From the NCBI GenBank assembly GCA_943354835.1, contig CALRDH010000003.1, forward strand, positions 104,496 through 168,495: a stretch of 64,000 nucleotides of DNA. The letters run 5' to 3'. The translations under genes and the position numbers were made by a program. Shown here in pieces: positions 5,664 to 39,143 of the stretch (position 1 is its first letter; each line of letters starts with the position of its first letter). The notes below the pieces were generated by a model, which saw only the letters and a program-made list of their open reading frames with translations, was not told where the DNA came from and made no database searches. The stretch is from a candidate division WWE3 bacterium. GTDB lineage: Bacteria > Patescibacteriota > WWE3 > 2-01-FULL-39-13.

Positions 5664-8600
5664 TTACTCCGTCGTGAAAGTATAGTATGCGTCGTAGGTG
5701 TAATTTTTGCCTTGACTCATAACTTCAAAGAAATATTCTTTTTGGGGTTCTAGATTTGTCAGCTTTGCCTCGTGGTATTTAGCTTTTGCTATTGAAAACA
5801 CTTCGTTTCCGTATTGTGTTGACTCTCCGTAGTTAACTTTGTTGTTGTATGTGTAATGATTTGTTTGCCAACTTACTATTGCGTAATCATCTCCAATCTC
5901 TTTGACCTTTACCTTTGTTATCTGTGTTGGGTTTTTGTCAAACACAAACGCGAAAAGGTTCACAACACTTACTTTTGCATCATATAAAAATCCTGGATTA
6001 TCACCAACGTATACGTATACTTTTTCTTTGTCATCTTTTTTAAATGGTTGGGCTAAAAAGTTTCCTGCGTTTTTAATACCGCCAATTGACCACCAGTAGA
6101 TATTGGCAAACATTTTCCCTGACCGACTAAGTAGCCCTTCTTTTTTAGGTTCTTGTTTTTCTACTTGTGAGGTTACTTCTTCTACTGTTGGAGTAATTTC
6201 TTGGACTTCATCTTGAATTTCAGTTGTTTTCTCTGTTTCAACGATAACCTCATCTTGTTTAATCTCGGGAGTAATCACTTGTGTAGGTATTTCATTTACT
6301 ACTACATCTAACTTTTGTGCTAGTAGCTTTATATCTATTTCAAATTGATATTTATCTCCTGTATTTTCTAGATTATCTATGGCTTCTAATGAAACGATGT
6401 ATGTTTTTCCTGTTTTTAAATTTTTTAATGTGGTTGAGATTTCTCCATTGTCTGTGGTTTTCGTGCCTGTTTCTATTACCTTGTCAGCAAAAAATCCTTT
6501 TTCTATAACTTCTATTTCTATCTTGTCTACGCCGCTTTCAGAATCGTCTTTATTTGGGTCATCTGCAATTATTTTTAGTGTTGGTGTCAAATTATTAAGT
6601 GAGTAGGCTGAGTCGTTTGATATTTCTTTTCCATCTATTGATACCTTCGCTATTTCTGGTCCTGTTTGATCTATATAAAATGTTCTTTCATCACTTTGCT
6701 CTTCGTTATTTACATCATCTACTGCTATTACATACCATGTGTGTTTCCCTTCGTCTGCGTCGTATTCATACTGCGTATCTGTTGTTGTTTTTATTAAATT
6801 ATCATCCAAATAGAGCTTATATTCTTTGACTCCGCTTGTTGCATCTGTTGATGCTTTCCACTTGAAATTTATATTGTCATCATTGAAATATTTTTTATCA
6901 TCAGGACTATTTAGCTCTGCCTGGGTTGGAACAGTTGTGTCTACAGAAAATGCGTCAGAGGAATTGCTAGAAATATTGCTTGCATTGTCTGTGGCACGAA
7001 CATAAATAGTATGTGATCCATCAGACAATGCGGTGGTGACAGCACAGGTAAAGGCTTCGGAGGCAGAATTAAAACTTCCATCATTAGCAGTACAACTTGA
7101 CCAACTTCCACTTGTACTATCCATTTGAAACTGCACGGTGGCAACGGTACCAGTGACATCGGTTGCTGTGCCTGTTAAGGTTGGTGTTGTGTCTGTTCCT
7201 GGGTCGGGTGAAATCGCAGTGAGGGAAATAGTAGAGGAAACGGTATCAATAGTAAATGTATCTGACGTCTCGCTTCCACTTCCTGTTGTGTTACTGAGTG
7301 AATCTGTAGCGCGGACATACATGGTGTGCGATCCGTCTGAGAGTGCAGATGTAACAGTACAGGTAAAAGCTTCAGAATTACTATTGAATGTTCCATCGTT
7401 TGCAGTACATGCAGTCCAACTCCCTCCTGTTCCATCCATCTGAAATTGAACTGCAGAAACAGTGCTTCTAGCATCTATTGCTGTTCCACTGAGTGTTGGA
7501 GTGCTGTCACTGTTTGGATCGGGAGTTAATGCAGTTAAAGAAATTACGGGCGCAGTTGTATCAAATGCTGTGTAATTTATGGCGACATCTGAAAATATTG
7601 GTGTTGCCGAGGTATCACTTGTTGCAAGGGTGACCTCGTATTGTATATACCTATGACCATCTGTTATACAACTATTTGCGCTTATGTCAGCTCCACTTGT
7701 AATAGTTGTACAAGAAGCAAACGCAGTTGCACCACTCATCCCGCTGTCATTGCTAGTTCTTGCTTTAACCGTGGCTGTCGTATTTGTTGGTGTAGTTGCC
7801 GAATAACTTAAACTCCCCCACTCCGAAAGCTGAGCTGTATCAAAGATGTTTGAGGTAAATGTACCTGAAGAAGAATACCCTATAACCCCTGTGCCGTAAG
7901 TTGGCGAAGTCGTGCCAGAAATGGCGTTTGGTGAATATATTGCGATACGACCAACACCACCAGCACCTCCGTGACCATAACCAGCAGGAGCTGTTGCCCC
8001 AGTCGCACCGGAGGCTGTAATTAAAGAAGAACCTAAAGTTGCGGTGTTAGTTGATACGAATATTGAACCTCCAGCTCCTCCACCACCAGCACTTTGACCA
8101 CATGAACCTGCCCCGCCAGTTGTTCCACTTGCATTTATAGTTCCAGTAACAGAGATTGTTGATGATCTAATGAATACTACTCCCCCTCCATTACCACCAA
8201 AAGCGGATGGACAGCCACCACTACCGGCACCACTACCATAATATAATTGTGTAAGCGCTGCTAAACCATAAGTCCCACCGCCACCGCCACTACCTCCATA
8301 AAAGATACTAGGATTACTGGCATCTCCTCCAGCTCCACCACTTATTCCCGATCCGATTGCCCCAGCCGTTCCACCTGCACCACCATAGCGTACTCCACCT
8401 GAACCTACATCGCCATAACCACCGCCACCACCGCCAGCATAGCTTAGTTCTCCAGGTCCACCACCTCCACCACCGACAGTACCTGCTGCCCCAGTTCCTC
8501 CAGATGCACCACCACCACCACCTCCACCCTGACCAGTAGCCCCATTTGTACTACTAGCTCCTCCTACTCCACCGGCTCCGTTATAAGTCATTCCACCTGC

Positions 8601-9326
8601 TCTGCTTGTTGCTCCTCCCTCATACCCTTTTCCACTTGCCGAAATTGTTCCGCCAGAGTCAACTGTCACCGTGCCATTTGCCTTAAAGAAGAGCACTCCA
8701 CCTTTACCAGTTGTATTGTTGTAAGCCGCGACGGTGAGAGTACCGCCACTACTTACTGTGGCATTGGTATATTGAGGTACTCGTTGCACCATGATTTTTT
8801 GGGTGGTGCCATCGTAGGTATTGGCAAGAGCGTTATCAAGAGTGAGGGTATTGGTGGCTATGCTTGTTATGTATCTGGTTTCATATTTACCGACATTGGA
8901 ATAGTCGCTTGATGTCCCTCGCAGATTGATTATCAATATCTCATCTCCCACCACCAGTCCATTTGGTGTTGCACCTACATTAATAGTCATCGCTCCAGCG
9001 GCGAGGGAAGAAGATATATTAAAATTCACTGCATCGGCGTAGGTTCTTCCTGTGGCAACCGTATCGGTATCAATGGTTTTGGTTGAGGAAACAGTAATTG
9101 CGCCGTCTGCTCCCGTACCAACATTTAACCCCAAAGTCACCTGACCTGCTGTAGTAGTCGCATCGATATTTGATCCGCTTGAGTATTGATTTGTGGTCGA
9201 TGCTCCAACGCCAGAGCTCCAGTTTGTTTGGTTCCAAGAGGTAGCGGCGTAAACAGGAGAAACAAAGAACAAAAGATTTTGTAGAAGTAAAGAAACAATT
9301 AAAAGAAGACTTAATATTTTTTTCAT
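5664..9326 (-). CDS. Large secreted/surface protein: signal peptide, Gly-rich beta-helix-like region, two tandem Ig-like repeats, FN3-like domains
   Basis: 1220 aa. Signal peptide MKKILSLLLIVSLLLQNLLFFVSPVYA. A ~230-aa run of GGxGG/GxGxxG repeats. Two ~95-aa tandem repeats (…ISLTA(L/I)(T/S)PDP…VQFQMD…SCTANDG(T/S)FNS…SEAFTC…ALSDGSHT(M/I)YVRATD). The C-terminal …YFFEVMSQGKNYTYDAYYTFTT is FN3-like. Confidence 0.8.
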   Translation of the reverse strand: MKKILSLLLIVSLLLQNLLFFVSPVYAATSWNQTNWSSGVGASTTNQYSSGSNIDATTTAGQVTLGLNVGTGADGAITVSSTKTIDTDTVATGRTYADAVNFNISSSLAAGAMTINVGATPNGLVVGDEILIINLRGTSSDYSNVGKYETRYITSIATNTLTLDNALANTYDGTTQKIMVQRVPQYTNATVSSGGTLTVAAYNNTTGKGGVLFFKANGTVTVDSGGTISASGKGYEGGATSRAGGMTYNGAGGVGGASSTNGATGQGGGGGGGASGGTGAAGTVGGGGGGPGELSYAGGGGGGYGDVGSGGVRYGGAGGTAGAIGSGISGGAGGDASNPSIFYGGSGGGGGTYGLAALTQLYYGSGAGSGGCPSAFGGNGGGVVFIRSSTISVTGTINASGTTGGAGSCGQSAGGGGAGGSIFVSTNTATLGSSLITASGATGATAPAGYGHGGAGGVGRIAIYSPNAISGTTSPTYGTGVIGYSSSGTFTSNIFDTAQLSEWGSLSYSATTPTNTTATVKARTSNDSGMSGATAFASCTTITSGADISANSCITDGHRYIQYEVTLATSDTSATPIFSDVAINYTAFDTTAPVISLTALTPDPNSDSTPTLSGTAIDARSTVSAVQFQMDGTGGSWTACTANDGTFNSNSEAFTCTVTSALSDGSHTMYVRATDSLSNTTGSGSETSDTFTIDTVSSTISLTAISPDPGTDTTPTLTGTATDVTGTVATVQFQMDSTSGSWSSCTANDGSFNSASEAFTCAVTTALSDGSHTIYVRATDNASNISSNSSDAFSVDTTVPTQAELNSPDDKKYFNDDNINFKWKASTDATSGVKEYKLYLDDNLIKTTTDTQYEYDADEGKHTWYVIAVDDVNNEEQSDERTFYIDQTGPEIAKVSIDGKEISNDSAYSLNNLTPTLKIIADDPNKDDSESGVDKIEIEVIEKGFFADKVIETGTKTTDNGEISTTLKNLKTGKTYIVSLEAIDNLENTGDKYQFEIDIKLLAQKLDVVVNEIPTQVITPEIKQDEVIVETEKTTEIQDEVQEITPTVEEVTSQVEKQEPKKEGLLSRSGKMFANIYWWSIGGIKNAGNFLAQPFKKDDKEKVYVYVGDNPGFLYDAKVSVVNLFAFVFDKNPTQITKVKVKEIGDDYAIVSWQTNHYTYNNKVNYGESTQYGNEVFSIAKAKYHEAKLTNLEPQKEYFFEVMSQGKNYTYDAYYTFTTE
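6990..7560. repeat. Intragenic tandem direct repeat (~2 x ~290 bp, roughly 75% identical) encoding the two Ig-like repeats
   Basis: The segment from ~7001 (catagtatgtgatccatcagacaatgcggtggtgacagcacaggtaaaggcttc...) parallels the segment from ~7321 (catggtgtgcgatccgtctgagagtgcagatgtaacagtacaggtaaaagcttc...) along their whole length. Confidence 0.7.
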
Positions 9327-10150
9327 TTTAGTTTCATAAATGTTGCACTACCCAATAACGATTTCATCTGAACAATGGCTATTTCATTCAGTTGAATTAG
9401 ACGTTCTGGTTGTGACAATCCTTGGCGAATCAACTCGGCATTCATTCCTTCCAAATTGGCCAAAACCACAAGTTGAGTCACATCAGAATAATCACGGATG
9501 TTCCCTTCTTTGTTTGGATTTTCATCTCTCCACTCCTTTGCTGTTTTCCCAAATAAGGCGACATTGAGCACATCAGCTTCATTTGCGTACACCATATTTA
9601 CTTTGTTTTTAGAGATACTTTCAGGAATCAAGTGTTTTTTGATTGCATCTGTATGAATTTTGTAGTTAATCTTGGTAAGAGTCCGCTTTACATCCCAACC
9701 AAGTGCAAGTTTCTGGCTTTCCACTTCTTTGAGTCTTTGAAATTCCTTGATTAAATAAAGCTTAAACTCTGGCGAAAGCCATGTTGCAAATTCAAAAGCA
9801 ATGTCTTTGTGGGCATAGGTTCCACCATATCTACCTGCACTGGATTTGATACCAATTGCATCTGTTTGTTTAATCCAAAATGACGAAGAAACGATAAATC
9901 CATTTGATCCTGCCTCATTTCTAATCTTATTGAATTCCATAAGATTAAAATTAGAATTGTGAACTTGTTCCCAAGCACCCATAAATTGAATTGTGTACTT
10001 TGTTGAAAGCCAATTGGCAATGACCACTCCGCTATCATATGACTTGAACTTTGCCATATCCGTCAAAGAGATATAGTCCAGCTCATTATACTTAAGTGTG
10101 ACTACTTCAATACCTTGAACAATTATTTTTTGTGATTTTCGATTAGTCAT
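9323..10150 (-). CDS. KilA-N domain DNA-binding protein
   Basis: ...NELDYISLTDMAKFKS... and ...GGTYAHKDIAFEFATWLSPEFKLYLIKEF match the KilA-N/APSES-type pattern (pattern recall). A 4-nt overlap with the surface-protein gene start implies co-transcription. Confidence 0.6.
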   Translation of the reverse strand: MTNRKSQKIIVQGIEVVTLKYNELDYISLTDMAKFKSYDSGVVIANWLSTKYTIQFMGAWEQVHNSNFNLMEFNKIRNEAGSNGFIVSSSFWIKQTDAIGIKSSAGRYGGTYAHKDIAFEFATWLSPEFKLYLIKEFQRLKEVESQKLALGWDVKRTLTKINYKIHTDAIKKHLIPESISKNKVNMVYANEADVLNVALFGKTAKEWRDENPNKEGNIRDYSDVTQLVVLANLEGMNAELIRQGLSQPERLIQLNEIAIVQMKSLLGSATFMKLK

Positions 10151-11018
10151 AATTTTTAAACTGTTTTTGGTTTTCAGGTTCTTTCAGATAATTTTTACTC
10201 GAAACAACAGACCTACCAAGCCGTTTTTCAAGCTTTTTTCTTGCAACTCCCGCTATATCACCACCATCTTTTGCATCTTTTTGAAGTTTATCAAGACCTT
10301 TTGAATCTTCAGTTATGTGAATCTCTGTTGTTGCGCGCTCGCCAAGCATTGTAAAAATAAGTTCGAAATCATTCATATGATCACGAAGATTTTCTCTTTT
10401 CAAACCTTTCAGATTTTTATACTCGCTTGGAGTTATTCCAAACGTTGCTTTGGATATTTCGGCAGTTAAAATCTCGTAATCTTTTTGCTCCCGCGCACCT
10501 CGCTTTTGCCATTCATCTGTAAGCTCTTCCCTAATTGCAATTCCACGAACTCTTTTTTCGATCCAAGCATCAGAATAGCCCTTTGCTTTATACAAAGCCC
10601 TTGTTCTTTTTGTTGCAAGCTCAGGATCCTCGATTTCCTGAACTCTTTCATAACCAACTTTAGCCAACCATCTTTTAAAAGGTTCTGCCTTTGGGGAAGG
10701 GATAGATTGGATAATGCGGAAAATTCCTTCTGTATTAGAGCAATCAGTTTCACGCATCTTGCCATCGGATGCAACTAATTTCAACCGTACGATTTTTTCG
10801 TACACTTCAACTGCCCCCTCTTCTTTTAATTTAATTTTAAGATCACTCCAATAGCGCTTTGGAATATTACTATCAGTTAAGGCCTCTATCACATCAATCA
10901 CCGAAAACCACCACTCATTTTCGTGTATTATTTTTCTAATCTCTTTTCCTTTGAATATAGAAATTCGAGTATTTTCAATCATGCACCTTATATTAGAATA
11001 TGATTTATATCGAGACAA
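10143..11018 (-). CDS. Bro-N domain protein, DinD-like (DNA-damage-inducible protein D family)
   Basis: N-terminal ISIFKGKEIRKIIHENEWWFSVIDVIEALTDS is a Bro-N motif. The C-terminal ...KRWLAKVGYERVQEIEDPELA...KGYSDAWIEKRVRGIAIREELTDEW resembles DinD-family proteins (recall, not searched). Confidence 0.6.
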   Translation of the reverse strand: MSRYKSYSNIRCMIENTRISIFKGKEIRKIIHENEWWFSVIDVIEALTDSNIPKRYWSDLKIKLKEEGAVEVYEKIVRLKLVASDGKMRETDCSNTEGIFRIIQSIPSPKAEPFKRWLAKVGYERVQEIEDPELATKRTRALYKAKGYSDAWIEKRVRGIAIREELTDEWQKRGAREQKDYEILTAEISKATFGITPSEYKNLKGLKRENLRDHMNDFELIFTMLGERATTEIHITEDSKGLDKLQKDAKDGGDIAGVARKKLEKRLGRSVVSSKNYLKEPENQKQFKNYD

Positions 11019-11036
11019 GGATGACAGAAAGAGACA

Positions 11037-11669
11037 TTACGGGGCTATGCTATCTACAATCAACGAGCTCCACACTTCCATTTCACCTTTTATTAATTTC
11101 AATTCTTCTAATGTTTTCCACTCAAATCCTTCATGCGTATCTTCATTTCCTACTACGTCTTGTCCATCAAGTTCAACAATTACCACAATTCCTGCATGAA
11201 CTTTTCCAACAGGATTACTATTGTCACTTATCAGACCGATATATTCATTACCAATAACCTGCGAGTTTATTTTAAGTTCTTCTCTAATCTAACGCTCCAT
11301 CCAGCTGTCAAACGGCTTATTTTCAATATCTTCAGCCCTAACATGTCCTCCAAAGCCGATTAAACCCATACCATGGAGCCTACTTTCACCACCTTTGCTA
11401 GTTCTTCTTGCAAATAAAAATCTATCACCGCATTTTAGTAAGGGATATGTAATTAATTGTTTATATGCTTCATCGCATTCAAGTTGAGGATTTCTGGTTT
11501 TATATTGGCCGTTAGAAACGATAAGATTCTTGAGCTCCTCTTCCGTCATATGAATCAAACCCTCTTGGCCTTCTAAAGAATTTACAGGAATTACCAAGAT
11601 CTTTTCTGACAAATCCTCGGAGATTTCCACTAAAGAAATAACATTAGACATTCTCTTTAATCTCCTCAA
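11037..11669 (-). pseudogene. NUDIX hydrolase gene interrupted by an in-frame TAG at the catalytic Glu of the Nudix box
   Basis: The track ORF 11289..11669 ends ...GFGGHVRAEDIENKPFDSWMER*. The same frame continues IREELKINSQVIGNEYIGLISDNSNPVGKVHAGIVVIVELDG...SLIVDSIAP to a TAA at ~11037. Aligned to the Nudix box GX5EX7REUXEEXGU, the TAG (11289-11291) sits where the conserved Glu (GAG) should be: R-*-I-R-E-E-L-K-I versus R-E-L-Q-E-E-V-G-I of MutT. Confidence 0.55.
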
Positions 11670-12987
11670 TCTTCACTCTTATCTGCTTTGTTGTGTCTCT
11701 GTCTCTTATTGTTACTGTTCCGTCTTCTAGCGTTTGGTAATCGACTGTAATACATTTCGGAGTTCCTATCTCGTCTTGTGAATAGTAACGCTTTCCAACG
11801 TTTCCACGGTCATCCCACGCAACCACAAATCCAGCTTTTACAAGATTTTCATAAACCTCTTTGGCCTTTGCAACAACTTCTGGCTTATTTTTTACTAATG
11901 GAAAAACAGCAACGCGATAAGGTGCTATCCTTGGATCTAATTTTAAGACGACCCTATCACCATCTTCTGAATACGCGTTATCTAACATTGCATATAAAGT
12001 TCGGTTAATACCAATCGAGATTTCAATAACATTAGGCATAAATTCTTTGCCCGATTCATTGTCTTTATACATAAACTTCTCACCACTATATTCTTGATGA
12101 CGGCTTAAATCATAATCTCCACGATGATTTAATGGAGACAGTTCAAACCATTTTCCGCTTGATGATTCAAATTCAAAATCATTTTGGATTTTTGCATAGT
12201 GTGACATTTCCTCTTTTGGAATTTCCCTAAATCTAAATTTATCTCTTGGCATACCAAGCTCATTTACAAACCAATTGAGCATAAATTCTTTCCAAAATTC
12301 ATACCACTTCAAACCTTCATCAGGCTCGATAAAATATTCAAGCTCCATCTGCTCAAACTCCCGTGTTCTATATATAAAATCTTTAGTTGTAATTTCATTT
12401 CTAAATGCTTTACCAATCTGCGCAATACCAAAAGGTGGCCTTAGTCTCATCGATTGCATTACATTTAAATATTGAAGAAAAATTACTTGACAAGTTTCTC
12501 CACGAAGATACGCCTTTTCTTTAGTTTCATCAGTACTTCCAAGTTCTGCGGAAACCAAAAGATTAAATGATTTTAATTTCGTAAGTTCATTTCCATCAGG
12601 GCTTTTAATATTATTATCATCCAAAATCTTTTGCATTTCAGGGAAAGTCATCTTTGAAGTATCAACATTCAATTTTTCCTCGATTAAGTGATCAGCTCTA
12701 TATCTAACATGCGTTTTTTTATCTTCAACTAATGGATCATTAAACGATGCAACATGTCCACTTGCCTCCCATGTTTTTGGATGACAGAAAATTGCACCAT
12801 CAAGTCCAACGACATCAGTTTTAGTCTCAACAAAAGATTTCCACCATGAATTTTTAATATTCTTAAGCATTTGGGCGCCGAGTGGACCATAATCATAAGT
12901 CGAAGAAAATCCTCCATAAATTTCTGATGAAGGAAATACAAATCCGCGTCTTTTACAAAGTGAAATTATTTTTTGTGAGTTATCCAT
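11644..12987 (-). CDS. glyQS: Glycine--tRNA ligase, single-chain alpha2 type
   Basis: ...CKRRGFVFPSSEIYGGFSSTYDYGPLGAQMLKNIKNSWWKSFV... is the diagnostic class-II GlyRS N-terminus. 447 aa. Confidence 0.92.
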   Translation of the reverse strand: MDNSQKIISLCKRRGFVFPSSEIYGGFSSTYDYGPLGAQMLKNIKNSWWKSFVETKTDVVGLDGAIFCHPKTWEASGHVASFNDPLVEDKKTHVRYRADHLIEEKLNVDTSKMTFPEMQKILDDNNIKSPDGNELTKLKSFNLLVSAELGSTDETKEKAYLRGETCQVIFLQYLNVMQSMRLRPPFGIAQIGKAFRNEITTKDFIYRTREFEQMELEYFIEPDEGLKWYEFWKEFMLNWFVNELGMPRDKFRFREIPKEEMSHYAKIQNDFEFESSSGKWFELSPLNHRGDYDLSRHQEYSGEKFMYKDNESGKEFMPNVIEISIGINRTLYAMLDNAYSEDGDRVVLKLDPRIAPYRVAVFPLVKNKPEVVAKAKEVYENLVKAGFVVAWDDRGNVGKRYYSQDEIGTPKCITVDYQTLEDGTVTIRDRDTTKQIRVKIEEIKENV

Positions 12988-13018
12988 ATTGGGTAAATGA
13001 TATCAGTTTTATAGTATA

Positions 13019-13663
13019 GTGGGAACTGTGATGAATCAAAGATTTTTAAATACCGAAGGAATAATATTAAAACGAATAAATTATAAGGATGCAGACAAGA
13101 TCTTAACAATATATACAAAAGATGCAGGCAAAATTTCAGCAATTGCAAAAGGGATCAGAAAAATAAATTCAAAAAGGAAAAGCCATTTGGAACTCTTAAA
13201 TCATGTGAAAATGCATTTAATTAAAAGTGGCAATATGTACATAGTCGCGCAAACAGAAGTGATTTCAACGAACCCAATGATTCGTGGCGATCTAGAAAAA
13301 ACAACTCTCGCTTACTACATAACAGAAATATTCGAAAAAATAATTGTAGATGAAGATCAAAACGACATTCTATTTAATTTCCTTAAAAAAACATTAAAAA
13401 TCTTAAATGAGTCATCTGACATTACATTTGTGAATGGATTTAATTTGAAATTACTTAAGCTAACTGGTTTTTATAGTAAAGACAAAATTAAAACTTTCCC
13501 AAATGAAATCAAAGAATACTTTAAACAATTAGAAATAATGAAATATGAAGACGTTTTGAATATAAAGCCAGACTATATGCTCGCAAAAACATCGCATGAA
13601 ATACTAAAATCTCTAACAGAAGAGATCTTAGAAAAATCACTCAAAGTAAAGCTTTTTATCTGA
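13019..13663 (+). CDS. recO: DNA repair protein RecO
   Basis: GIILKRINYKDADKILTIYTKDAGKISAIAKGIRK is the RecO N-terminal OB-fold signature. The true start may be the ATG at ~13031 (MNQRF). Confidence 0.7.
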   Translation: MGTVMNQRFLNTEGIILKRINYKDADKILTIYTKDAGKISAIAKGIRKINSKRKSHLELLNHVKMHLIKSGNMYIVAQTEVISTNPMIRGDLEKTTLAYYITEIFEKIIVDEDQNDILFNFLKKTLKILNESSDITFVNGFNLKLLKLTGFYSKDKIKTFPNEIKEYFKQLEIMKYEDVLNIKPDYMLAKTSHEILKSLTEEILEKSLKVKLFI

Positions 13664-18346: not shown

Positions 18347-19343
18347 TCACCTAGGTTTGAGTATAGAGAAAATCTCCCGCATTAATTTTTTGCTGTCATG
18401 CCTTAACAAACTTCTTTTGACACGGTCACCTTTTATTGGATTTACTTCAACAGCTTTTAATAAGTCAGCGCGCATGACTCTGTTATCTTCTGCCAAATCG
18501 TCTAAAACCGCATATGACTTTTCTAGTTCATATTTTTGGAGTGAACTTTTTGGAAGTTTTTTATTGTTCATTAATATATAGTCAATTTTTCGACCTATAT
18601 ATTTTTCAATCTCGTAAACATAATCAGACGCTTTAAATCCATGCGTTTGTCCCCACTTCGAAACTATATTAGGTATAAATATAATTTTTGGCGTGCGATT
18701 TTTTGATGGCATCACTTACTCCATCAACAACAATATTGGCGAGTAAACTTGTATATAAATCTCCGGGACCCATAATTATATAGTCGGCTTCACTTATCGC
18801 CTCTTTAGATTTATCAAATATCTTTGCTTTTGGTTGTACCCAAAGTCGTGAAATTCGCATAGTCCCATCGTGTGAAGATTCAGGTTCATCAATCATAGAT
18901 TCGCCGAATGCAACGGACCCATTTTCATATTGCGCAATCAATTGGATATCATCAAAGGTTATAGGGAAAACTCTTCCTTGAATATTTAGAATTCTTGAAG
19001 CTTTTCTAAATGCTTCTTCTTCACTTCCTAATATTTCAGTTAAAGCTGTAATAAGTAAATTTCCAAAATTATGTCCTTCTAAACCAGGACCTCCTTTTGA
19101 AAATCTGTATTCAAAAAGTCTACGCAAAATGTTATTGCCATTACCATCTTCAGAAAGCGCAACCAAACATTGCCTAAAATCTCCGACAGGAAGTTTTCCA
19201 AATTCATCGCGCAAAACGCCAGTACTTCCACCGCTATCGGCAGACGACACAATCGCAGTTATATCAATATTTTCGATATGTTTTATGGCAGAAAGTACTG
19301 TATAAGTTCCAGTGCCTCCGCCGATTACAACTATTCGTTTCAT
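18347..19343 (-). pseudogene. YvcK/CofD-like (UPF0052, gluconeogenesis-factor family) gene split by a +1/-1 frameshift in a poly-A run
   Basis: ORF 18669..19388 (…MKRIVVIGGGTGTYTVLSA…GPGDLYTSLLANIVVDGVSDAIKKSHAKNYIYT*) and ORF 18347..18715 (MMPSKNRTPKIIFIPNIVSKWGQTHGFKASDYV…) are the N- and C-terminal parts of one YvcK-like protein in different frames. They overlap at ~18669-18715, where the coding strand reads GCCAAAAATTATATTT. The start is probably the MKRIVV Met at ~19343. Confidence 0.6.
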
Positions 19344-19372
19344 ATATAATTTAGTAGTATCATAAACTATAA

Positions 19373-20644
19373 ATGAAGAATTTTCCAAATAAATTAATTG
19401 AAATATATAAAGGGAATTTTATTTTAAGTAGATCATCTATAGTTATTGTCTCGTCTCTTTTTGGGAGTGTTTTTTCATACCTATTTCAGTTTTTATCAGC
19501 ACGAAGTTTAAGTGTTGAAGAATATTCAGAACTTGTTTCGCTTTTCTCATTAAGCGTAATAATTGGCACAATCATGCTGGTTTTTACAAACGGAACGACA
19601 AAGCTTGTTGCTGAAATAAAATCAATTAATTATCCAATTAGAATTTCAAATTTTTTCTTCTCTTTAATGAAGCTTGTTTTATTAACAACTATAATCGTTT
19701 TTATAGGCATGGTAGTTTTCCAAAATCAAATTGGATCATATCTAAATATTTCAAATAAAAGTCTAATTTATATATTTGCAATCGCCGTCATTCTTGGAAA
19801 TATAAACTCTGCATTAGGGCCGATTTTGCAAGGACTTCAACGATTCAAAGCATTTTCGTTTTACAACATATTTAATTCATTTGCGAAATTTCTAGTTGCT
19901 GTAATAGTTTTATATTTTGGACTTACTGTAATAGAAACATTTTGGGGCTTGGTAATTTCAACAGTCGTAAGTATTGCGGTAGGAGCTGTTTTGTTAAAAA
20001 AGAATTTACGTCTAAATTTAAAAGCATTTGATAATGAGGATATAAAAACTTTAGCAAAGTATTCAATCGGAAGCATCTTAATTTTGGCGGGCTTAAATTT
20101 CTTACAAAATAACGACATAATTTTGGTAAAACATTACTTTGATGCAAACCTTGCAGGCATATATGCATCTCTAACAGTTATTGGCAGAATTGTCTTTTTT
20201 GCAGCGTCGCCAGTTGCAATAGTTATGCTTCCAATTTGCGCCGAAAGATATAAACATGGCGGAGATGTTGTAAAACCATTTTTAATTTCGATTTCAATTT
20301 CAGCATTAATTGCGTCATCAGTTTCTTTGGCCTATTGGCTTTTCCCAAAACTAATAATTGGAATTCTATTTGGTGAAAAATACATACAGTCAGCTCCATA
20401 CTTACCATTATTTGGTTTATTTATGCTTTTTTACACAGTCTTATATGTCGTTGGAATGTTTTTTATATCCATATCAAAATTCAAGCAAGGATCACTAATG
20501 TTAATCGGTGCAGTAATACAAATCGTCGGGATTTACTATTTTCACGAAAATTTATATCAAGTTATATGGGCGTCAATAATAGGAACAATCACATCACTAA
20601 TTGCTCTAACGCCATTTCTAATTGCTGATATTAGAAAGAAGTGA
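19373..20644 (+). CDS. Wzx-like oligosaccharide flippase / polysaccharide biosynthesis protein (MOP superfamily)
   Basis: 423 aa, about 12 predicted TM helices, in the size and arrangement typical of Wzx. Adjacent to GT genes. Confidence 0.55.
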   Translation: MKNFPNKLIEIYKGNFILSRSSIVIVSSLFGSVFSYLFQFLSARSLSVEEYSELVSLFSLSVIIGTIMLVFTNGTTKLVAEIKSINYPIRISNFFFSLMKLVLLTTIIVFIGMVVFQNQIGSYLNISNKSLIYIFAIAVILGNINSALGPILQGLQRFKAFSFYNIFNSFAKFLVAVIVLYFGLTVIETFWGLVISTVVSIAVGAVLLKKNLRLNLKAFDNEDIKTLAKYSIGSILILAGLNFLQNNDIILVKHYFDANLAGIYASLTVIGRIVFFAASPVAIVMLPICAERYKHGGDVVKPFLISISISALIASSVSLAYWLFPKLIIGILFGEKYIQSAPYLPLFGLFMLFYTVLYVVGMFFISISKFKQGSLMLIGAVIQIVGIYYFHENLYQVIWASIIGTITSLIALTPFLIADIRKK

Positions 20645-24459: not shown

Positions 24460-24708
24460 ATGTCAGATAATGTTCAAACACTAACTAAGGATAGTATTGA
24501 GATTCGAGTTCATAGAGATATGTGCATTAGTGCTGGGCCTTGCACTGTTTATGCTCCTAATACTTTTGATATTGATGATTCCGGAATCGCATTTATTAAA
24601 GCTGGCGATTGGGATTCTTTTGAAAAGATTTTTGAAGCAGCTAAAAGTTGCCCTGTTTTAGCAATTGAAGTTTATAAAGATGGTAAAAAGGTTTATCCTG
24701 AAAATTAA
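24460..24708 (+). CDS. Small single-cluster ferredoxin
   Basis: MSDNVQTL...VHRDMCISAGPCTVYAPNTFDIDDSGIAFIKAG...AAKSCPVLAIEV shows a CxxxGxC...CP ferredoxin pattern. The track ORF 24085..24708 has a spurious 125-aa N-terminal extension overlapping the preceding gene. Confidence 0.55.
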   Translation: MSDNVQTLTKDSIEIRVHRDMCISAGPCTVYAPNTFDIDDSGIAFIKAGDWDSFEKIFEAAKSCPVLAIEVYKDGKKVYPEN

Positions 24709-38201: not shown

Positions 38202-39143
38202 ATGTCTGACATAATTGATATTCTAGCTTGCCCAGTATGTGGAAACCCGATAACTAAAACGAACAACAAACTCTCATGTTCAAATAATGATTGCAAGAAA
38301 TCATATAGCCTCCTTTTTGATAACATATTTTCATTTTTAGACAATGACCAATCAGATGATACTGAACTTTCAATTGAAAAATGGAATGAATTTTATTCTG
38401 ACAAAACAAAATTTGATGATTATGAAAAGCGATATCAATTATACCTATCTGATAATTATGATAATGTGTATAGACAAATTTCCGAAAATAAAAAATTTGA
38501 CGAGAAAACAACAATCCTTTTAGAAATAGGATGTGGCCCAATGTTTTTAGCCCGTGCACTTTCTGATAAATGTAAATTGGTTGTCGGTATAGATTTTTCC
38601 ATAAAAGCATTAAAAACTGCAAAAGCAATGCTCGAAAAAAACAAGATAAAAAACTACATACTAATACATGGTGACATAAAAAATATGCCAATTAAAGATG
38701 GCTCGATTGACATTATCTACGGTGGTGGCGTTATAGAGCATTTCACAGATACATATACAGCAATCCAGGAACTTTATCGGGTTCTAAAACCAAGCGGGAT
38801 TTCTTTTAATACCGTTCCACATTTGAATATCGGATCATTAACCTATCGTCAAGTTTGGGGAAATATTCCTAATTTCCCAGTTTTAAAACAGATTGCAGAA
38901 TTCATACATATAAAATTACTAAAATCAAAACATATGACGTTTGGTTATGAATTATCTTTTTTAGCTACACATCTAAAGTATCTTCATAGTAAAGCTGGTT
39001 TCAAAAAGGTAGAAGCTAAAAAGTTCGAAACAAAATTAATGTTTGAATTTATTCCGACAAAAATTCTAAAAAACAGTATGTCTTGGCTAGCAAATAACAG
39101 CCCATTATTTTGGCCAATGATTAAAGTTATAGGGACCAAATAA
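38202..39143 (+). CDS. Class I SAM-dependent methyltransferase with N-terminal Trm112-like zinc ribbon
   Basis: MSDIIDILACPVCGNPI...LSCSNNDC and ...LLEIGCGPMFLARAL...VVGIDFS...GGGVIEHF. Confidence 0.7.
   Translation: MSDIIDILACPVCGNPITKTNNKLSCSNNDCKKSYSLLFDNIFSFLDNDQSDDTELSIEKWNEFYSDKTKFDDYEKRYQLYLSDNYDNVYRQISENKKFDEKTTILLEIGCGPMFLARALSDKCKLVVGIDFSIKALKTAKAMLEKNKIKNYILIHGDIKNMPIKDGSIDIIYGGGVIEHFTDTYTAIQELYRVLKPSGISFNTVPHLNIGSLTYRQVWGNIPNFPVLKQIAEFIHIKLLKSKHMTFGYELSFLATHLKYLHSKAGFKKVEAKKFETKLMFEFIPTKILKNSMSWLANNSPLFWPMIKVIGTK

Follow-up and report, generated by a model that had tools for sequence, protein, structure and literature searches.

A premature TAG codon in the Nudix box of a TM1382-like gene that overlaps glyQS in a WWE3 bacterium

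Closest described systems

The closest solved relative of the gene described here is TM1382 of Thermotoga maritima (PDB 3E57), annotated as a "putative Nudix hydrolase." The gene is on the minus strand of a 64-kb stretch of contig CALRDH010000003.1, from an uncultured, groundwater-type WWE3 (Katanobacteria) bacterium of the candidate phyla radiation (CPR). This whole stretch is called the window below. The gene follows and overlaps glyQS, which encodes a class II glycyl-tRNA synthetase (GlyRS), and it is interrupted by an in-frame TAG at the invariant glutamate of its Nudix box. The TAG is very probably a genuine, recent nonsense mutation that inactivated an accessory gene of the TM1382 family.

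A survey of the Nudix clan lists 3E57 (UniProt Q9X1A2) as function undetermined (PMC5389931). Our search of the literature on TM1382 or COG4112 found nothing relevant. The window protein shares with TM1382 homology over the full length, the fold, a size of about 200 amino acids, and an N-terminal extension of about 60 residues. It also shares the variant box, which reads ...GIGGHVR..D...LEREVNEEV... in TM1382. It differs in that TM1382 is 28 to 29% identical to the modeled ortholog of the window protein and in that a stop replaces the Glu of RE in the window copy. A function shared by the two proteins is suggested by fold only.

The second described system is Escherichia coli MutT. The family profile aligns the RE-U-x-EE helix of the family to MutT R52-E53-L54-Q55-E56-E57. 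In MutT, these glutamates are ligands of the catalytic metals, and E53 takes part in catalysis. A stop at codon 121, which is equivalent to E53, therefore removes the catalytic center. The family differs from MutT in having G-x5-D-x11-RE in place of G-x5-E-x7-RE, no Gly after EE, and an extra N-terminal region.

An in-frame stop at a conserved sense codon of a CPR bacterium also recalls the UGA-to-Gly code of Gracilibacteria/Absconditabacteria. In a 2026 review, UGA to Gly in Gracilibacteria/SR1 was the only recoding reported in the phylum (PMC13293708). The present case differs from it. It is a single case and not genome-wide, TAG, TGA, and TAA all terminate genes here, and Glu is required at the position.

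The last comparison is with defense islands and other variable islands. The Nudix gene borders a Bro-N gene and a KilA-N gene that match the PADLOC families PDC-S13 and PDC-S22. As in such islands, almost every relative examined has its own gene content between glyQS and mraZ, and broken, intact, and replaced alleles coexist. It differs from them in that the Nudix protein has no PADLOC match and its gene is tied to the housekeeping gene glyQS. The PDC families themselves are untested candidates, proposed from genomic association.

Reading frame and premature stop

The minus-strand frame from 11669 reads LRRLKRMSNVISL...GFGGHVRAEDIENKPFDSWMER, then a stop, then IREELKI...SIAP and a final stop. 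Its features are as follows.

11037..11651, minus strand: whole TM1382-like Nudix gene, very probably now a pseudogene; 204 codons plus TAA, with one in-frame TAG
11289..11651, minus strand: truncated frame that is called as a gene (product P0004); 120 codons plus TAG
11289..11291, minus strand: premature TAG at codon 121, where the RE-U-x-EE helix has its invariant Glu (E121, the counterpart of MutT E53)
11040..11288, minus strand: 83 downstream codons, open and conserved, for the C-terminal helices and the greater part of the Nudix beta-sheet core; out of reach of translation from the main start
11037..11039, minus strand: original TAA stop of the Nudix gene; also the 3' edge of an exchangeable cassette
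11644..11651, minus strand: overlap of the Nudix start and the glyQS stop, 8 nucleotides (ATGTCTAA)
11662..11667, minus strand: GAGGAG, a Shine-Dalgarno-like site upstream of ATG 11651

The premature stop consists of T at 11291, A at 11290, and G at 11289. Past it, the frame is open for 83 codons to the TAA at 11039 to 11037. By our own estimate, the chance of an 83-codon open stretch at about 37% GC is roughly 0.003. The 83 codons are also 66 to 80% identical in protein to full-length orthologs and are therefore not a chance frame. The gene is collinear, without indels, with the 204-amino-acid orthologs P0001 (80% identity) and P0002 (79%).

The open reading frame (ORF) finder starts the upstream piece at TTG 11669. 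The orthologs begin with MSN or MSS, which matches ATG 11651 (MSNVISL...). By this alignment, the predicted start is ATG 11651 and not TTG 11669. A preliminary description of this DNA had the stop and the open tail to TAA right; its start is moved here to ATG 11651, and the tail is 83 codons.

Codon 121 is GAG in the three nearest orthologs (L003, L004, and L005). Thus, the lesion is a single G-to-T transversion (GAG to TAG). This agrees with the preliminary description, which had proposed a one-base change at the Glu of RE and had asked for a comparison with orthologs.

An internal restart after the TAG was considered and rejected. The first in-frame canonical start is GTG 11186, which would give 49 amino acids and has no support. 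A scan of 10800 to 13200 for promoters and terminators found nothing exceeding the shuffled expectation.

Nudix family, box, and fold

The Pfam NUDIX match of the window protein was below threshold (13.3 bits against a cutoff of 21.1; E 0.082), and the NCBIfam scan gave zero model matches. The family assignment was instead built on homologs, a profile search against the PDB, and a structural model. The Pfam NUDIX model matched 17/50 family members at E < 0.01, with a best E of 2.2e-8.

A word-indexed search of 5.8 billion protein clusters retrieved 11 relatives. They include P0001 and P0002 (204 amino acids each), P0004 (the exact 120-amino-acid product), and P0006 (117 amino acids, from another lineage). 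An exhaustive profile search with a cutoff of E < 1e-30 retrieved 248 representative clusters, almost all of them single-domain proteins of about 190 to 215 amino acids. The family profile matches one solved structure, 3E57, at E 7.7e-35 over residues 15 to 197.

The AlphaFold model of P0001, the intact ortholog, has a mean predicted local distance difference test (pLDDT) of 92.9 and a predicted template modeling (pTM) score of 0.87. Its best Foldseek match is 3E57 (TM scores of 0.74/0.82), followed by NudI, YfaO, NudC, MutT2, and RppH. There were 290 PDB matches at E <= 0.001, and the 50 top-ranked ones shown are all Nudix proteins. The ancestral full-length protein, as modeled from P0001, has the alpha/beta/alpha sandwich of the Nudix fold; the 120-amino-acid window product lacks over half of it. 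Profile and model together place the gene in the TM1382-like (3E57) branch of the Nudix superfamily, in line with the Nudix assignment made earlier from the sequence.

The box of the family is G102-x5-D108-x11-R120-E121-U-x-E124-E125. The preliminary description had aligned this region to the canonical box GX5EX7REUXEEXGU. The placement of the TAG at the Glu of RE stands. The box itself is a noncanonical variant: it is longer by an insertion of 4 residues, and EE is not followed by Gly. In the window, TAG takes the place of the Glu codon of RE, and the EE pair lies past the stop.

The TAG column is Glu in all 146 aligned family members. The surrounding consensus is ...GGH[IV]...D...R-E-[LFI]-x-E-E..., with R in 144/146 and both later Glu residues in 146/146. 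The invariant residues of TM1382-like proteins (GGH, RE, EE, H152, and G154) are all in the window frame except E121.

In the P0001 model, residues 119 to 125 are helical and form the Nudix helix, and the TAG falls at its first turn. The strands past the helix are 126 to 128, 132 to 142, 152 to 161, 166 to 168, and 173 to 180. Strands 63 to 83 share one sheet with strands 126 to 180, and the first 120 residues are no separate domain. Truncation after residue 120 removes the three invariant glutamates of RE-x-x-EE together with the C-terminal helices and over half of the beta-sheet core.

The family matches the phage protein family phrog_8902 at E 1e-29; no function is assigned there. A scan of GTDB representative genomes retrieved only distant relatives from Dependentiae/Babeliales (29 to 34% identity). 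No conserved neighborhood was found across the wider family, whose neighbors include FtsH, transporters, and WD40 proteins. The link to glyQS is therefore specific to this clade and gives no general clue to function.

The lesion in other assemblies

The exact 120-amino-acid product is called on 6 public contigs (NCBI, ENA, and Logan). Two of these were fetched. An ENA contig of 46.6 kb, with a k141 (MEGAHIT-style) name, is 100% identical to the window over the 6,363 nucleotides fetched. The other, a Logan contig of run ERR3719140, matches the window at 100% identity over 1,645 nucleotides. No intact allele more than 80% identical to the window protein was found among the 5.8 billion clustered proteins. 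The lesion is independent of the assembler and is very probably not an assembly artifact. The identity of the contigs speaks to assembler independence only and gives no allele frequency.

Age of the lesion

For codons 122 to 204, the ratio of nonsynonymous to synonymous substitution rates (dN/dS) is 0.14 and 0.09 against two intact orthologs and 0.12 against a repaired frameshift allele (described below). For codons 1 to 120 it is 0.12 to 0.19, and the downstream values are no higher. Past the TAG, the window has only two amino acid changes of its own, both conservative (I132V and V155I). The corresponding counts of unique changes in the intact orthologs are 7 and 5. There are zero further stops or indels. 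Neither relaxed selection nor extra lesions are seen downstream of the stop, and the downstream codons are still Nudix-like, as had been expected from the sequence. We infer that decay is absent because the lesion is too young. It appears to be very recent relative to the divergence of these lineages.

A frameshift in a sister lineage

P0006 (L005 to L010 and L018) carries a 1-nucleotide deletion (AAACC-TTTGAT) 21 nucleotides, or 7 codons, upstream of the position of the window TAG. Its product is 117 amino acids, and here too the former frame is undamaged as far as the original stop. The frameshift allele is on 12 contigs, of which 6 were fetched, from 6 assemblies. A programmed frameshift was considered for this lineage and rejected; by inspection, there is no slippery heptamer at AAACC-TTTGAT.

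The P0006 allele lies inside a block of about 830 to 920 nucleotides of DNA that is 100% identical across strains. The flanks of the block are highly divergent. GlyRS is 94% or 55 to 57% identical to that of the window, and the Bro-N gene has at least 3 N-terminal alleles. L005 and L006 share at least 2 kb. The block is a recombination mosaic and possibly reflects a gene-specific sweep.

The TAG and the frameshift are two independent lesions within 8 codons, for which the chance is about 0.08 by our own estimate. P0012, a partial protein from Rifle groundwater, has a P0006-type N terminus with an intact box. P0003 (L041; an 802-nucleotide scaffold, Rifle SAMN03202995) is 73% identical and has an intact box. 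After ...THESLEW, its scaffold continues into unrelated, GC-richer DNA. Either the scaffold is a chimera, or the 3' end of the gene in L041 is disrupted in a third way.

Stop codon usage

Under table 11, the window has a coding density of 95%. Its 52 nonoverlapping ORFs of at least 100 amino acids end in TAA (29), TGA (13), and TAG (10). Two of the 10 TAG-ended ORFs are the Nudix fragment and a probably spurious antisense ORF (38254 to 38691, minus strand). TAG ends about 9 other genes in the window, past complete Pfam domains. A Transketolase_C subunit is complete (profile 124/124) before its TAG, and an unrelated epimerase gene follows 6 nucleotides on. A GT4 glycosyltransferase is likewise complete before its own TAG. 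Four same-frame pairs in the window are split by a single TAG with at least 70 codons on each side, and only the Nudix pair is one gene.

No other conserved gene with an in-frame TAG was found in the window. No tRNA genes and no Rfam families (at gathering score) were found in it either. TAG is very probably not a sense codon here, and the earlier statement that it is an ordinary stop in the window holds. To our knowledge, no code reads TAG as Glu.

The antisense ORF at 38254 to 38691 is 145 amino acids long. It is probably spurious, and a plus-strand gene at 38205 to 39143 (MSDIIDILACPVCG..., zinc-ribbon and methyltransferase-like) covers the same DNA.

The slot after glyQS and the variable island

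The genes and the motif that surround the Nudix gene are as follows.

11644..12987, minus strand: glyQS, class II glycyl-tRNA synthetase, 447 amino acids; Pfam tRNA-synt_2b and HGTP_anticodon
11015..11036, minus strand: 22-nucleotide motif TGTCTCTTTCTGTCATCCTTGT, directly after the Nudix stop; occurs once in the window
10143..10982, minus strand: Bro-N gene, 279 amino acids, first gene of the variable island; Pfam Bro-N; PADLOC PDC-S13 (E 1.2e-118, full length)
9323..10150, minus strand: KilA-N gene; PADLOC PDC-S22 (E 3e-125, full length)
5664..9326, minus strand: 1,220-amino-acid Gly-rich Big_13/fn3 protein; GC content up to 44%, against a background of about 32%

At 90% identity or more, the window GlyRS falls in one cluster with OGC47954.1 of WWE3 bacterium RIFCSPHIGHO2_01_FULL_35_17, which places the organism in candidate division WWE3. 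The 8-nucleotide overlap of glyQS and the Nudix gene also occurs in L004 and in L005 to L010, and the P0005 locus has a 14-nucleotide overlap. The preliminary description had asked whether this overlap is conserved, and it is. The overlap suggests translational coupling.

Other genes occupy the same slot in relatives. L042 to L047, which carry the GlyRS of the named WWE3 genome, contain an opposite-strand HTH_17-CYTH gene instead of the Nudix gene. L042 and L005 are 99.3% identical as far as the final base of glyQS, and L042 retains about 15 nucleotides of the Nudix 3' end. L048 to L050 contain a 109-amino-acid MazG gene that overlaps the end of glyQS by 11 nucleotides. L050 is the closest relative found, with 92.3% nucleotide identity to the window over 2,998 nucleotides upstream. 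Its similarity ends 3 nucleotides before the Nudix ATG and returns at the Nudix stop codon, so the exchange of Nudix and MazG is ORF for ORF. From these alignments, three structurally unrelated predicted nucleotide-polyphosphate hydrolases (Nudix, MazG, and HTH-CYTH) alternate in one slot. No MazG or CYTH homolog was found elsewhere in the window.

The motif TGTCTCTTTCTGTCATCCTTGT is kept whichever of the three genes (Nudix, MazG, or CYTH) fills the slot, and also in L003, whose very next gene is mraZ. It marks the 3' edge of the slot in every variant and may be a site of regulation or a boundary of recombination.

The Bro-N gene, the KilA-N gene, and the 1,220-amino-acid gene form an insertion of about 5.4 kb between the Nudix gene and mraZ, which is absent from L003. 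The N-terminal part of Bro-N is hypervariable among relatives. Between the slot and mraZ, L003 has nothing, the P0005 locus and L048 have Fic, and L042 has NYN. The PADLOC models gave zero matches to the Nudix protein itself. Intact Nudix alleles persist in several lineages.

Interpretation

The gene is very probably an ordinary young pseudogene in a fast-changing region of the genome, with no change in genetic code. Translation under the standard code would halt at codon 121, in the first turn of the catalytic helix, with the start and the glyQS overlap kept. The Nudix gene is probably cotranslated with glyQS. The truncated product would be unable to fold as a Nudix domain or to bind the catalytic metals, and the allele would be null. 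Its loss is probably tolerated because the clade can dispense with the activity or replace it. The slot turns over fast, with relatives that are intact, are frameshifted, or have MazG or HTH-CYTH instead, and the gene is therefore taken to be dispensable. The preliminary description had offered inactivation or recoding; inactivation is supported, and recoding is not.

Several points weigh against this reading. The proximity of the two lesions hints that there could be selection for a truncated product of about 118 amino acids and not plain decay. An unrelaxed downstream half is also what continued read-through translation would give. The scan for a suppressor tRNA covered 64 kb of the genome, and none was there. 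The contig-level evidence is compatible with a minority intact allele in the population. The 6 contigs are independent as assemblies and may be less so as samples, with overlapping read sets.

The repeated loss may be neutral or selected. The proximity of the lesions and the allele shared across divergent backgrounds are suggestive of selection. The TAG and the sister frameshift could be selected nulls of an activity that is costly in some conditions, for example, on dinucleotide polyphosphates made by GlyRS or in conflict with phages or hosts, since the gene borders a region that resembles a defense island; null alleles or MazG and CYTH swaps would then be selected repeatedly. Both lesions are inside the catalytic box, the frameshift allele sits in an identical block amid very divergent flanks, the neighbors match PDC-S13 and PDC-S22, and three unrelated nucleotide hydrolases alternate in the slot. 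However, two lesions so close together have a p of only about 0.08, and the identical block could be a hitchhiking recombination tract (L005 and L006 share at least 2 kb). The Nudix protein matches no PADLOC model, the family is not tied to defense genes by a conserved neighborhood elsewhere, and several lineages keep intact alleles. We consider adaptive loss unlikely. Another proposal, that the fragment of about 120 amino acids (the N-terminal extension and the first Nudix strands) is itself functional and that lineages converged on the truncation point, is very unlikely. Independent lesions do yield products of 117 and 120 residues, dN/dS is low in the N-terminal half (0.12 to 0.19), and the start, the Shine-Dalgarno-like site, and the glyQS coupling are intact. 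Against this, the first 120 residues share a sheet with later strands in the model, representative family members are all single-domain proteins of about 190 to 215 amino acids, the low dN/dS mostly predates the lesions, and relatives lose the whole gene.

Read-through or recoding of the TAG, by a suppressor tRNA, near-cognate decoding, or a local signal, would give a full-length and possibly low-abundance enzyme. It would account for the open 83 codons, their dN/dS of 0.09 to 0.14, and their having fewer lineage-specific changes than the intact orthologs, as well as for the kept start, Shine-Dalgarno-like site, and glyQS coupling. It is opposed by the ordinary use of TAG after complete domains in about 9 other genes, the lack of any other conserved window gene with an in-frame TAG, and the finding of no tRNA and no Rfam element in the window. 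The invariant Glu would have to be restored, and the one recoding reported in the phylum is of UGA. In addition, the frameshift of the sister lineage, without a slippery heptamer, is beyond rescue by read-through. We regard read-through as extremely unlikely. It is just as improbable that the organism has GAG and that the T comes from an error in sequencing or assembly or from a minority variant that the assembler fixed. The source is a metagenome-assembled genome, and other broken genes had been seen in the window. The 120-amino-acid product is nevertheless on 6 contigs from at least two assembly pipelines, both contigs fetched are identical to the window, and no closely similar intact allele was retrieved. 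The lesion is a substitution and not a homopolymer indel, and a break in the CofD gene of the window is likewise reproduced on 5 contigs.

With a recent nonsense mutation as the preferred explanation, 11037 to 11651 is best annotated as a TM1382-like Nudix hydrolase pseudogene and not as a 120-amino-acid hypothetical protein. The lesion gives no ground to suspect a variant genetic code in WWE3. It is itself routine, and the swap slot around it is more interesting. The locus shows accessory-gene turnover in an ultrasmall CPR genome, in a slot coupled to an essential aminoacyl-tRNA synthetase gene and with broken intermediates present. If the interchangeability of the slot reflects a shared function, it would offer a handle on the substrate of the TM1382 family.

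Second broken gene and other observations

In the CofD/YvcK-family gene (18347 to 19388, minus strand), a frameshift close to an A-run at about 18669 to 18715 divides the frame in two. Its pieces of 239 and 122 amino acids cover positions 1 to 210 and 207 to 281 of Pfam CofD. The same split is called on 5 public contigs. The CofD split and the Nudix TAG both recur across assemblies, which brings the reproducible gene lesions in these 64 kb to at least two.

The preliminary description had set the Nudix substitution apart from two homopolymer frameshifts, which it took for typical errors. The Nudix lesion is indeed a substitution. The contrast is weaker than proposed, since the CofD frameshift is also reproduced in other assemblies. 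A check of overlapping ORF pairs on the same strand and of the larger gaps between genes did not turn up the second homopolymer frameshift. A small ferredoxin-like ORF occupies the gap at about 24460 to 24708 on the plus strand.

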